From the NCBI GenBank assembly GCA_021823825.1, contig JAKANJ010000001.1, forward strand, positions 1 through 47,070: 47,070 nucleotides of DNA. The letters are read 5' to 3'. Positions 42,487 through 44,109 of the stretch are shown piece by piece. The DNA is from a bacterium. GTDB lineage: Bacteria; Patescibacteriota; Minisyncoccia; Phycocordibacterales; UBA1550. Position 1 is the stretch's first letter; each line of letters opens with the position of its first letter. A program made the translations under genes and the position numbers. The notes beneath the pieces were generated by a model. That model saw nothing but the letters and a program-made list of their open reading frames with translations, did not search any database and was not told the DNA's origin.

Positions 42487-42644
42487 TGGCCGGAACGATG
42501 CCGAGCAAGGCCACGATAAATCTAGGGCACTGCGATTTTCTAAGGTCTCAGTCGAGACCAAGTAAATCGGGAGCATGCGAGGCCGTGAGGCGGGGCCGGC
42601 AGAAACTTATGAGCGACGGCGAGTAAGTTATCTGTGGCTTCGTT

Positions 42645-42691
42645 TCCCTACCCGCACATTACAAAGATACCCCAGCCACCCGGCTGGGGTA
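42645..42691 (+). repeat. Direct duplicate of the tRNA-Gly 3' end plus its downstream hairpin
   Basis: 47 nt identical to 42405-42451 (tccctacccgcacattacaaagataccccagccacccggctggggta), offset 240 nt. Degenerate similarity extends on both sides. Confidence 0.88.
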
Positions 42692-42848
42692 TCTTTGTGT
42701 AATTTAAGCGGCAACAAGGCAAGTCCAATATATAGAATAGGTGCAGGTTCAACTCAACGCATAAAGGACACTAAAATATTAAAACACAGCCAATGAATAG
42801 CACGTCAACAGCCATACTAGGCAAAATATAGCTTAAAATTATAAAAAC

Positions 42849-42878
42849 TGTGGATAACTATGTGGATACTGTTGATAA
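42849..42878. promoter_or_regulatory. Cluster of three DnaA-box 9-mers next to an AT-rich tract
   Basis: TGTGGATAA at 42849-42857 is perfect. TGTGGATAC at 42861-42869 and TGTTGATAA at 42870-42878 are each 8/9. They are preceded by aaaatatagcttaaaattataaaaac and lie about 180 nt upstream of yraN. Confidence 0.55.
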
Positions 42879-43057
42879 AGGACACATAAAATTAAAAGCG
42901 TAATGTCTAAAACTCTAAAAGACGTAGTAGCTATTTCTAAAAAACCTATACATCCCAATGGTATTTAAGAAATTTGCAAAAAAACGCAGATTTTTATGTA
43001 AATGTTACTAAGTAACATATACATTGTTATTCGTGAAACGTTCAAGTATACTGACTT

Positions 43058-43471
43058 GTGGCGGTACAAACAGAAAAACAAAAAATTGGAGCACTTGGGG
43101 AGGAAATTGCGTCAAAATTCCTTACTAATAAGGGTTTTACGATAAAATTAAGGAATTATCGTAAGAAATGTGGCGAAATTGATATTATCGCAGAAAAAGG
43201 GGAAATACTTCATTTTGTTGAAGTTAAAAGTGTTTCACGTGAAAGTTCTAATGATTTTGATCCAGGTGTTTCCCATGAAACGTGTGGCTATCGGCCAGAG
43301 GACAACATCCACCCACAGAAACTGAAACGTCTATCTAGGGCGATTAGACTTTATTTGTGGGAAAACTTTCATGAAAATGAGCCAAAATGGGTGTTTGATG
43401 CAATAACAGTAAAGCTAAATATCAAAACTATGCGAGCCTTTGTTAAGTTTATTGGGGATATCACGCTGTAG
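43058..43471 (+). CDS. yraN: YraN-family (UPF0102) endonuclease-like protein
   Basis: GALGEEIASKFLTNKGFTIKLRNYRKKCGEIDIIAEKGEILHFVEVKS matches the YraN/PD-(D/E)xK core. GTG start. It carries an insertion of about 25 aa relative to typical 115-120-aa members. Confidence 0.8.
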   Translation: MAVQTEKQKIGALGEEIASKFLTNKGFTIKLRNYRKKCGEIDIIAEKGEILHFVEVKSVSRESSNDFDPGVSHETCGYRPEDNIHPQKLKRLSRAIRLYLWENFHENEPKWVFDAITVKLNIKTMRAFVKFIGDITL

Positions 43472-43576
43472 GAGCTTTATAAAAGTAACTGAGTGTGCTA
43501 GTATTTCATAACAATTTTCCGCTTTGGAGCGAAATTGTACTTGGAACGGTTCTCTATTGAAAATTGAAGCTATGGT

Positions 43577-43652
43577 CGGGGTGTGGTGTAACGGCTAACA
43601 TTCCTGTTTTGGGTACAGGCGACTCCGGGTTCGAATCCCGGCACCCCGACCA
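43577..43652 (+). tRNA. tRNA-Pro (anticodon UGG) with genomically encoded CCA
   Basis: Hand-folded cloverleaf. Acceptor CGGGGTG/CACCCCG (C1-G72), anticodon stem CCTGT/ACAGG with loop TT-TGG-GT (G37), T-arm CCGGG-TTCGAAT-CCCGG, discriminator A, then CCA at 43650-43652. Confidence 0.92.
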
Positions 43653-43716
43653 TGATTTTAATTGGTATCGGGGGGTATTTGACAAAATGTTGAATATCCC
43701 TGCGAACCCCTCGTCG

Positions 43717-43788
43717 TTCAACGGATAGGACGCAAGCTTCCGAAGCCTGTGACGCAGGTTCGATTCCTGCCGAGGGGACAATAGCAAA
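43717..43788 (+). tRNA. tRNA-Arg (anticodon CCG), no encoded CCA
   Basis: Hand-folded cloverleaf. Acceptor CCCCTCG/CGAGGGG, D-arm GTTC/GGAC with GG in the loop, anticodon stem CAAGC/GCCTG (one A-C mismatch) with loop TT-CCG-AA, T-arm GCAGG-TTCGATT-CCTGC, discriminator A. Confidence 0.82.
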
Positions 43789-43790
43789 AC

Positions 43791-43835
43791 TCCAGCAAGG
43801 TTAAGCCTTGCTGGAGTTTTGCTATATCGCGCCCC
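43791..43835 (+). repeat. 20-bp perfect hairpin immediately 3' of tRNA-Arg(CCG)
   Basis: atagcaaaactccagcaagg ttaag ccttgctggagttttgctat. Confidence 0.85.
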
Positions 43836-43842
43836 CTCGGCA

Positions 43843-43953
43843 GGAATCGAACCGTAGGCGACTGATTTTCTTGGTCTCAACAGAGACCTTAGAAAATCGG
43901 AGTTCCGACTGAAAGGAGGGGCGATTCCTGCCGAGGGGACAATGACAAAAACA
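43843..43953 (+). repeat. tRNA-end module C1: inverted copy and direct copy of the tRNA-Arg(CCG) 3' end flanking a structured core
   Basis: 43843-43863 (cccctcggcaggaatcgaacc) is the reverse complement of tRNA bases 43767-43787. 43932-43953 is identical to tRNA 43771-43792. The two arms form a 17-bp helix around a core that holds the hairpin 43874-43908. Confidence 0.85.
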
Positions 43954-43954
43954 C

Positions 43955-43989
43955 CAGATTTGCTCCTGGTGCTTTTTGTTATACGAGTT
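43955..43989 (+). terminator. Terminator-like hairpin after module C1 (a diverged version of the 43791-43835 hairpin)
   Basis: acaaaaacaccag atttgctc ctggtgctttttgt, with a T-run in and after the 3' arm. Confidence 0.55.
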
Positions 43990-44001
43990 ATCCCTCAGTA
44001 G

Positions 44002-44109
44002 GAATCGAACCGTAGGCGACTGATTTTCTTGGTCTCAACAGAGACCTTAGAAAATCGGAGTTCCGACTGAAAGGAGGGGCGATTCCTGCCAAGGGTACAA
44101 AATATTCAA
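44002..44109 (+). repeat. tRNA-end module C2 (second tandem copy, arms decayed)
   Basis: The 91-nt core 44010-44100 is identical to 43852-43942 (period 158 nt). The left arm is ccctcagtaggaatcgaacc. The right arm cgattcctgccaagggtaca matches the tRNA 3' end at 18/20. Confidence 0.85.

Follow-up and report, generated by a model that had tools for sequence, protein, structure and literature searches.

A hairpin shared in opposite orientation by two tRNA modules is the variable tip of an interchangeable unit in folded elements that trail tRNA genes of Patescibacteria

The GGTCTC-N4-GAGACC hairpin that recurs behind tRNA-Gly and tRNA-Arg genes in a patescibacterial genome is the species-specific tip of a larger unit of about 70 nt, here called the H-unit, and this unit is a genus-level accessory, an interchangeable building block of an order-wide family of elements. 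Four parts make up each member of the family: a hairpin resembling a terminator (T), an arm that is antisense to the host gene (A), a structured core, and a copy of the host gene's 3' end in sense orientation (S'). Members are found behind tRNA and tmRNA genes as well as at the topA 3' end. An earlier note on the 47,070-nucleotide stretch of DNA analyzed here (the window) had read the hairpin as a cassette of about 35 nt that is shuffled in either orientation among modules of a mosaic repeat family. That interpretation is partly supported: the modular, mosaic character of the family is borne out, whereas the hairpin is no free 35-nt piece and its orientation is not random. Comparison of the window region and seven related loci with Rfam 15 at E<=1 returned only tRNA models, and we found no description of the element family in the literature; it is apparently undescribed.

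Results

The hairpin pattern GGTCTCNNNNGAGACC matches the window at positions 42544, 43873 and 44031, against 0.00 matches expected from 100 shuffles. Mapping the motif genome-wide, as the earlier note had proposed, took it beyond these three sites, to a fourth exact copy elsewhere in the genome (C14:677) and to relatives. The two Arg(CCG) copies, when reverse-complemented, do give the Gly hairpin, apart from three mismatches over 35 positions, of which two fall in the loop and the third in an arm. Because the T/TT internal loop becomes AA/A on inversion, the inversion is genuine and goes beyond the symmetry of a palindrome. The flanking sequences, described in the note as unrelated, are only partly so: the inverted similarity extends over 54 nt at 81%, and the Arg-type modules of relatives share the conserved 5' flank of the Gly copy, of which about 68 nt have been lost here.

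The complete H-unit consists of two hairpins, a small one with loop ACGATAAATCTA followed by the H hairpin, and then GGGAGC. It occurs in 17 of the 29 genomes of the genus (the Candidatus Yonathbacteria group), in 1-6 copies each, and in three kinds of context: sense to a tRNA, antisense to a tRNA, and stand-alone. Its 5' part comprises 27 nearly invariant nucleotides, and the loop of the small hairpin is likewise conserved across species; this invariant part suggests a function of its own. The H hairpin is the variable portion, with tips that include GGTCTC/GAGACC, AGTCTC/GAGACT, GGCCCC/GGGGCC and GGTTG/CAACC. In an alignment of 25 distinct copies, 11 of 19 base pairs have changed on both sides, a level that none of 500 shuffles matched. 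Strand bias is absent (G:T 15 versus A:C 16): of 27 copies, 10 fold better on the unit's own strand and 15 on the reverse strand, and the H-unit thus forms its fold as well on one strand as on the other.

We see no sign that the hairpin delimits anything larger. It does not mark the ends of longer elements, as the earlier note had suggested it might, and neither a known MITE or IS end nor a transposase or TnpB accompanies it. The ends of the H-unit, RGGCCACG and GGGAGCA, are not inverted repeats. The H hairpin is not one of the terminator-like sites and lacks a T run, whereas the separate T hairpins do qualify as terminators.

The module behind tRNA-Gly(GCC) shows the canonical arrangement. 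The tRNA gene (42346..42417, plus strand, CCA not encoded) has its 3' part (S) copied in both arms of the trailing module. Directly 3' of it lies the terminator-like hairpin T (42417..42462, plus strand), followed by the A arm (42471..42487, plus strand), a perfect 17-nt antisense of the T-loop, T-stem and acceptor 3' strand of tRNA-Gly. The H-unit comes next in sense orientation (42507..42575, plus strand; 90.3 bits with R1, our H-unit model, and supported by covariation), made up of the small hairpin (42508-42531, loop ACGATAAATCTA), the H hairpin (42534-42568, exactly where the earlier note had placed it) and GGGAGCA; it fills the variable hp1 position of the canonical core. By our reading a GAGCA repeat possibly flanks the unit, overlapping the unit's own end. 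Hairpin hp2 (42592..42638, plus strand) carries the conserved loop GAGCGACGGCGA at 42611-42622, and R2, the core model, matches 42551-42639. The module closes with S', a 12-nt sense copy of the tRNA-Gly 3' end, and T', a second terminator hairpin (42645..42699, plus strand for both), which together form a 54-nt direct repeat of 42405-42458. For context, a neighboring locus (41580..41882, plus strand) combines tRNA-Arg(TCG), a canonical core (41699-41784, plus strand) with hp2 loop GAGCGACGGCGA, and a second, truncated unit that is an 86-nt perfect repeat.

The tRNA-Arg(CCG) gene (43707..43779, plus strand, CCA not encoded) is followed by a T hairpin (43781..43825, plus strand) and an A arm (43833..43853, plus strand) that is a perfect 21-nt antisense of the 3' part of the tRNA. 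Copy 1 of the H hairpin (43864..43898, minus strand; R1 match on the minus strand, 32.6 bits) stands in inverted H-unit orientation. It is succeeded by the conserved 3' tail (ggagttccgactgaaaggaggggc) of a second class of module, the '-' class, and then by S' (43899..43943, plus strand for both), a sense copy that runs from about T-loop position 57 to the tRNA end and includes the trailer. A second tandem unit then supplies T', whose hairpin sequence differs from that of T, and A' (ccctcagtaggaatcgaacc), an imperfect antisense arm (43944..44011, plus strand for both), copy 2 of the H hairpin, again in inverted orientation (44022..44056, minus strand), and a second-unit tail with a degenerate final sense copy S'' (44057..44100, plus strand for both). 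Both hairpins lie 10 nt below the positions given in the earlier note (43874-43908 and 44032-44066). Copy 1 belongs to a '-' class module that lacks the first small hairpin together with hpX, about 68 nt in all; with that stretch left out of account, the Arg copies of G000 can be aligned over their whole length to complete '-' class modules. Both Arg(CCG) copies are deletion derivatives of the '-' class architecture.

Both orientations relative to tRNA genes do occur, as the earlier note had it, but they follow the architecture of the module. At full '-' class loci of the sampled relatives, the H-unit is antisense to the tRNA or to tRNA-derived arms in eight of eight cases (seven loci with the hpX hairpin, and Thr-CGT in G001, where the unit lies directly 3' of the tRNA), and at canonical-type loci it is sense in eight of eight. 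The '-' class is a second architecture in which, among the loci sampled, the unit is always antisense to the tRNA. Flipping of the whole core between the inverted arms is tentatively rejected as the origin of the antisense class: in both classes the arm geometry keeps to the tRNA frame, and the hpX/H-unit architecture never turned up in a sense version. A single tRNA can be served by either arrangement: at Arg-CCG the H-unit runs antisense in both G000 and G002 but sense in G014.

Across the order, the core model finds matches in 97 of 121 genomes, with up to 40 copies per genome. Among 20 sampled matches, 15 lie behind a tRNA gene on the same strand and three at the 3' end of topA; in two regions of about 15 kb, from G125 and G062, each tRNA is followed by one or two co-oriented cores. 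Clusters of cores that might have been cassette arrays with cargo genes proved to be clusters of tRNA genes. Most copies of the element lie downstream of an intrinsic terminator. The direct repeats S and S' of the 3' part of the tRNA span 12-54 nt and leave the tRNAs intact, and over all modules the duplicated portion of the target ranges from 5 to more than 60 nt. In a long-arm class S' starts sharply at one T-loop position in many different tRNAs, and in a short-arm class only about 5 nt of the target are duplicated.

The arms of the modules differ at every locus because they are copied from the neighboring gene. At topA the A arm has changed along with the codons in four lineages, and the duplicated 3' ends there run identically for 38 nucleotides and beyond that show synonymous differences only. 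These differences are not adenine-specific, which led us to reject mutagenesis of the kind seen in diversity-generating retroelements (DGRs). The canonical core is conserved in another way: every one of its 26 pairs covaries, pairing holds in 97.9% of cells, and several of the unpaired bases do not vary over more than 90 genera. The core is also strongly asymmetric between strands: 98 G:U stand against 3 A:C pairs, one particular G:U pair recurs in 57 of 62 copies, and in 65 of 65 the sense strand is the more stable. Covariation and asymmetry together imply selection on the core as a tRNA-sense single strand, and the strand acted upon is probably RNA.

Comparison of strains shows that units come and go. 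One 140-bp unit is missing at the tRNA-Arg(TCG) locus of strain L071, the near-identical strain L075 lacks the whole 158-bp second Arg(CCG) unit, and in these strains missing exactly one unit the flanks are 99.7-100% identical. Between species, module types differ at orthologous tRNAs. Among near-identical strains we saw no empty site, circular form or inversion polymorphism, and their topA and tRNA-Val loci likewise showed neither empty sites nor inversions.

No mobilizing enzyme could be matched to the elements. The modules contain no ORF, and the Xer-like recombinase lies at least 2.5 kb away. A dedicated integrase was rejected as a candidate, each genome having one Xer-like tyrosine recombinase gene even where it holds 20-40 cores. 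Occasional proximity of Xer and core reflects a conserved gene order, Xer ... tRNA cluster ... YraN. YraN was discarded as a correlate; present in 111 of 121 genomes, it is near-universal and therefore uninformative. We found no RT, TnpB, IS110 or serine recombinase in this genome, and searches of viral contigs and of phage and plasmid collections gave no match to the elements.

Discussion

What spreads and reshuffles such elements? We hold, with roughly even confidence, that the H-unit is an exchangeable block of protein-less folded elements, behind tRNA genes, tmRNA and topA, which host recombination spreads. The host's own recombination would spread and reshuffle the elements as DNA, each bringing a replacement 3' end plus a terminator for its target gene while the displaced original 3' end (S') stays downstream, an outcome like that expected of Campbell-type integration, or of a knock-in by way of homology arms once DNA has been taken up. 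The H-unit would be a small palindromic cassette dropped by recombination into permissive positions beside the A arm, and it may be accepted in either orientation because the hairpin forms either way. Some observations sit uneasily with this proposal. The strong strand-specific selection on the core makes a purely DNA-level, selfish reading incomplete; plain homologous recombination needs no A arm that tracks its target, as seen at topA; the sharp boundary in the T-loop fits a site-specific step better than random crossovers; and the duplication of about 5 nt in the short-arm class is too little for homologous recombination. That we saw neither empty sites nor circular forms or inversions, and that 27 nt of the H-unit are invariant, also count against it.

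The two orientations of the H-unit could instead reflect opposite transcription, with no shuffling at all. The unit would then be a functional RNA domain on its own strand, and the '-' class modules would be small RNA genes converging on the tRNA gene, sharing a bidirectional terminator with it, their ends pairing into a helix like that of an acceptor and T-stem. We consider this unlikely, although it is favored by the near-invariant 27-nt part and the ACGATAAATCTA loop, by a conserved A:A mismatch that retains the polarity of the unit in every context, and by the fact that '-' class modules read in H orientation show the canonical layout of antisense arm, core, GGTTCGA plus sense arm, and terminator. 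The consensus also folds slightly better in that orientation (-37.1 versus -34.5, with two invariant G:U pairs), but when '-' class sequences are folded one at a time, six of seven do slightly better if read in the direction of the tRNA, and the H-unit itself is without strand asymmetry. In four genomes one and the same gene carries the unit in its leader, in sense orientation, yet a unit upstream of infC (on C44) is antisense to the gene, and the Gly, Trp, Leu and Asp modules hold the unit inside a sense-strand core. A promoter-like site (44139->44110) is directed into the Arg array; it is weak, however, matching at 9 of 12 positions where about six such sites are expected by chance in the region, and by eye no equivalent was seen in relatives. 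Like orphan structured RNA motifs, the canonical core is fully supported by covariation, has loop and bulge bases that do not vary and a G:U pair that is conserved, and keeps one orientation behind tRNA genes; ordinary noncoding RNA genes, however, lack the arms matched to each gene and the duplicated host 3' end that the elements carry.

In another reading, which we regard as rather improbable, the elements would be self-targeting, protein-less mobile units with the A arm as guide, a catalytic or recombinogenic core and the H-unit as an exchangeable peripheral domain. The A arm would select the insertion point by base pairing with a tRNA T-loop or 3' end or with a stretch of topA codons, and the fold of the core, as RNA or as sense-strand single-stranded DNA, would drive or license insertion with host enzymes only.

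We think it very unlikely that the elements are non-autonomous single-strand transposons of IS200/IS605 or REP type, mobilized by the transposase-like protein of Y1 (HUH) type that the genome encodes, their hairpins and complementary A arm serving as counterparts of the hairpin-plus-guide ends of IS608. A Y1_Tnp ORF of 229 aa is present (on C52), imperfect hairpins do lie beside a segment complementary to the flanking target, and the one-strand selection on the core is as expected for a single-stranded DNA intermediate. At least one Y1 gene occurs in 75 of the 121 genomes, but without association with the elements: it is found in 63 of the 97 core-bearing genomes and in 12 of the 24 that have no cores, and complete genomes that carry 8-16 cores lack any Y1. 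The repeats on either side of the Y1 gene of this genome, 95 nt long, are unrelated ones; we therefore rejected Y1 as the mobilizer. Unlike IS200/IS605 elements, ours also duplicate target sequence, 12-70 nt of it, and 1-6 H-units per genome contrast with the hundreds of copies typical of REPs. More broadly, REP/BIME/REPIN sequences, pneumococcal BOX elements and MITEs share with our elements ORF-less hairpins, modular sub-units, varying copy number, either orientation and intergenic sites after genes, whereas here there are no fixed-sequence terminal inverted repeats, no regular short target duplication and no parent IS or linked RAYT, and the arms are locus-specific. Folded single-strand sites such as attC, the CTX attP hairpin used by XerCD and IS608 are similar in conserving structure more than sequence, in one-strand selection and in inverted target copies that form a target-mimicking duplex, and host recombinases could suffice for them. 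Here, however, there is no dif-like site and no correlated Y1 transposase, and the strand bias may equally reflect RNA; compared with integron attC, the T-loop GTTCGAA does not fit GTTRRRY, and the sole tyrosine recombinase is Xer-like in size.

The siting of the elements recalls tRNA- and tmRNA-targeting integrative elements, including islands, prophages and tycheposon-type arrays. Those too are found at the 3' ends of tRNA, tmRNA and protein genes, carry a replacement 3' end, by which the target gene stays intact, leave a displaced direct copy starting in the T-loop, and stack in tandem. Our elements differ in being 120-250 bp long and ORF-less, with no integrase near or correlated, in adding an antisense copy of the target and a covarying strand-specific core, in occupying each examined tRNA in some genomes, and in duplicating only about 5 nt in the short-arm class. 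Could they be decayed scars, stacked attL/attR remnants of integrase-bearing prophages or islands in which the hairpin is leftover arm-site sequence? We give this a very low probability, slightly below that of Y1-borne transposons. Direct repeats with their start in the T-loop, a feature of classical tRNA att sites, the targeting of tmRNA and of the 3' end of a conserved protein gene, and the tandem arrays are all in its favor. Yet the covariation of all 26 core pairs and the invariant bases indicate purifying selection and not decay, the one Xer-like recombinase per genome adjoins no element, the viral, phage and plasmid collections hold no match, and in some genomes every tRNA in the regions examined bears an element. 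That the shared hairpin is a coincidence, or an artefact of a metagenome assembly fragmented into 67 contigs, has next to no probability given a chance expectation of zero matches, recovery of the loci at 99.7-100% identity in five to seven independent assemblies, and homologues with compensatory changes in 16 other genomes of the genus.

The two covariance models that we built, for the H-unit and for the core, can be used to annotate such elements. The repeats probably contribute to assembly breaks at tRNA loci and to low assembled tRNA counts; only 21 tRNAs were found in this genome. Patescibacteria have tiny genomes from which classical mobile DNA is almost absent, and despite that scarcity a protein-less folded element trails most tRNA genes across more than 90 genera. 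If the elements are spread by host recombination after DNA uptake, they would illustrate how selfish DNA can do without genes and still persist; should the core function as an RNA, they would constitute a large, unrecognized class linked to tRNA expression.

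A family of elements behind tRNA genes

Most CCA-less tRNA genes of this genome (a Patescibacteria assembly of 561 kb in 67 contigs), and its tmRNA gene, are trailed by a common layout, T-A-core-S', in which T is a terminator-like hairpin, A an antisense copy of the T-loop, T-stem and acceptor 3' strand of the same tRNA, the core two long hairpins, and S' a sense copy of that tRNA's 3' end. The canonical core, searched with a model, occurs 13 times here and in 97 of 121 genomes (96 of 119 genera) sampled across the order, where single genomes carry as many as 40 copies; all genome counts come from sampling incomplete assemblies and related lineages. 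A same-strand tRNA precedes 15 of 20 sampled core matches, three of the 20 sit at the 3' end of topA, and in the two ~15-kb regions examined from two element-rich genomes, one or two co-oriented cores stand behind each tRNA. Searches of Rfam and the literature returned no published description of the family.

The arms fall into two classes. In many different tRNAs the long-arm S' copies share one T-loop starting point, after GGTTC, and lie directly 3' of the conserved core end GTGACC; in the short-arm class only ~5 nt (ACAA...) of tRNA end and trailer are repeated. Nearly every CCA-less tRNA here has discriminator A followed by CA(A/C/T), an ACAA-type trailer (window 41650-41656, 42415-42420 and 43777-43783, for example), which the core 3' end plus S' (GTGACC-ACAA) resembles. 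Second hairpins of canonical cores whose stems differ in sequence share the 12-nt loop GAGCGACGGCGA (window 41756-41767 and 42611-42622; contigs C9, C16 and C58 as well), and other core copies carry a longer alternative second hairpin. At C31:2286-2420, a perfect 29-nt direct copy of the tRNA-Ile(TAT) 3' end lies 33 nt downstream of it, with neither core nor antisense arm in between. Two contig ends carry tandem repeats, of ~47 nt behind the tRNA-Pro(CGG) module (C10:1-110) and of ~53 nt behind tRNA-Thr(TGT) (C48:3760-3860); several tRNA loci terminate contigs and only 21 tRNAs were assembled, which suggests that tRNA-linked repeats break assemblies.

An inverted hairpin and the H-unit

GGTCTC-N4-GAGACC occurs in the window at 42544, 43873 and 44031, where 100 shuffles give an expectation of 0, and a fourth time in the genome, on contig C14. 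The full H hairpins span 42534-42568 behind tRNA-Gly-GCC, and 43864-43898 and 44022-44056 behind tRNA-Arg-CCG; the earlier note had recognized the Arg pair but placed both members 10 nt too high. Its central observation stands: the Gly hairpin differs from the reverse-complemented Arg hairpin at three positions, and the two are truly inverted because the asymmetric internal loop T/TT becomes AA/A in the reverse complement. The inverted similarity spans 54 nt at 81%, so the flanks, which the earlier note called unrelated, are not wholly so.

Every copy of the hairpin in relatives has (A/G)GGCC-ACGATAAATCTA-GGGCACTGC on its 5' side and GGGAGC on its 3' side, and we call the whole ~70-nt piece, from conserved 5' flank through H hairpin to GGGAGC, the H-unit. 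Its small first hairpin has an invariant 12-nt loop; the lower stem of the H hairpin, GATTT(T)C/GAAATC, is constant and the tip varies with compensation. Across 25 distinct copies, 11 of 19 pairs changed on both sides, a covariation reached in none of 500 shuffles. The unit is strand-symmetric (15 G:T vs 16 A:C) and neither strand folds consistently better. This symmetry suits a piece needed only as a hairpin, or a site acting at DNA level, better than a strand-specific RNA domain, and a 27-nt invariant part argues that the unit is more than filler. A covariance model finds it in 17 of 29 genomes of the genus, at 1-6 copies per genome, and it is restricted to that genus; viral contigs searched with it contained none, and exact matches to the conserved hairpin flank came only from Candidatus Yonathbacteria / Paceibacterota records.

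The H-unit has three contexts. In tRNA sense it directly follows the antisense arm of a tRNA-trailing module, behind Gly-GCC (this genome and G018), Leu-GAG, Trp, Asp, Pro-UGG and, in genome G014, Arg-CCG; in the tRNA-Gly module it replaces the variable first hairpin of the canonical core. Inverted, it occupies the same place behind Arg-GCG, Arg-CCG (G002), Asn (two genomes) and Arg-UCG, in the architecture A - gtaggctccc - inverted H-unit - hpX - atggtctcgaccgaagggagaggcg - S', where hpX is a second hairpin, ccatttt...aaaatgg; the exception, Thr-CGU in G001, has the inverted unit directly after the tRNA. The four inverted-type copies of this genome (two at Arg-CCG, one at Arg-GCG, an orphan on C14) can be aligned over their whole length with the full architecture, from which they lack ~68 nt: the first small hairpin and hpX. 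Orientation thus tracks architecture, not tRNA identity; at Arg-CCG the unit is antisense in this genome and G002 and sense in G014.

Stand-alone units form the third context. In four genomes such a unit sits within the leader of a gene for a conserved secreted protein, and may be a cis-regulatory leader. These solitary units (L033, L036, L020 and L047, positions ~1350-1600 of each) lie between a strong promoter with a short terminator-like leader and the start of the ~175-aa protein, MKKQTIQFVRGL...GYGAKL...WRLLPAI.... In this genome a full unit with compensated tip (GGCCCC/GGGGCC) lies antisense just upstream of infC-rplT (C44:1343-1413, minus strand). A weak promoter-like site at window 44110-44139 on the minus strand (TTCACA-18-CATGAT, 9/12 match) lies just beyond the last sense copy of the Arg(CCG) array and is directed into that array; judged by eye, it has no counterpart in relatives.

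The suggestion of a ~35-nt cassette shuffled in either orientation through a mosaic family was right in spirit, at half the actual length of 70 nt. Mapping revealed copies beyond the three window sites, with sense, antisense and stand-alone units all represented. The unit keeps to two fixed architectures plus solitary sites, and belongs, as one accessory among others, to a far larger family.

Selection on one strand of the core

Pairing holds in 97.9% of cells over 62 distinct canonical cores; all 26 of 26 pairs show double compensatory changes, and several unpaired bases are invariant. G:U outnumbers A:C by 98 to 3, one G:U being present in 57 of 62 copies, and in 65 of 65 copies the fold of the tRNA-sense strand is more stable than that of its complement, by a mean of 8.9 kcal/mol. 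These figures show that selection acts on the canonical core as a single strand, the one running in the tRNA direction. That strand is most simply read as RNA; single-stranded DNA is possible. Most T hairpins resemble real terminators, so a core RNA would need read-through; at locus L097 the module sits between two tRNA genes of one operon and must be co-transcribed with them. For the inverted class, the strand test does not clearly favour either strand.

Turnover and the topA site

Independent assemblies with 99.7-100% identical flanks lack exactly one unit: 140 bp behind Arg-UCG in L071, or 158 bp behind Arg-CCG in L075. The extra Arg-CCG unit is not a plain tandem copy, since its T hairpin is different and its A arm fits a slightly different tRNA-Arg. 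Module type at orthologous tRNAs also differs between species.

Outside the window, a canonical element lies at the 3' end of topA, encoding DNA topoisomerase I (C59:12697-12941), where a second copy of the gene's final ~70 nt is present. The copies share 38 identical nt and beyond these differ at eight positions. Because all eight differences are synonymous though only the upstream copy is translated, the two ends derive from two coding alleles, a pattern that an incoming element would produce by bringing its own gene end and displacing the resident one. In four lineages the topA A arm covaries with the codons. An element occupies this topA site in four or more other genomes of the order.

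How the elements might move

No element-specific mover was found, and no ORF lies inside the elements. A Y1 transposase-like gene shows no association with them, and YraN, considered as a correlate, is near-universal. Searches of this genome for RT, IS110, serine recombinase and TnpB, the last of these named in the earlier note, found none. Each genome has one Xer-like tyrosine recombinase. Window 38696-43471 runs from the Xer-like recombinase through the CCA-adding enzyme (40031-41500, minus strand) and the tRNA cluster to YraN (43058-43471), and in G062, G125 and G081 Xer, the tRNA/core cluster and YraN lie within a few kb of one another. The Y1 transposase/RAYT-like ORF (229 aa; C52:1400-2330, outside the window) is bracketed by ~95-nt direct repeats, each with a hairpin aaaaagctccgccc...ggtcggagcttttt and a TTATCCACA box; a fourfold tandem repeat of ~22 nt lies upstream.

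Because nothing element-specific was found, we infer that host recombination moves the elements. This could proceed by Campbell-type integration of an [S-T-A-core] circle, or taken-up DNA could enter by a double crossover, with the body of the tRNA or gene as left homology arm and S' as a built-in right arm. Host recombination would explain S', the difference between T and T', the highly conserved targets and the topA pattern. It leaves unexplained the A arm, the sharp T-loop boundary, the 5-nt short-arm class and the strand-specific core, and these features keep alive a guide-directed or single-strand mechanism for the family.
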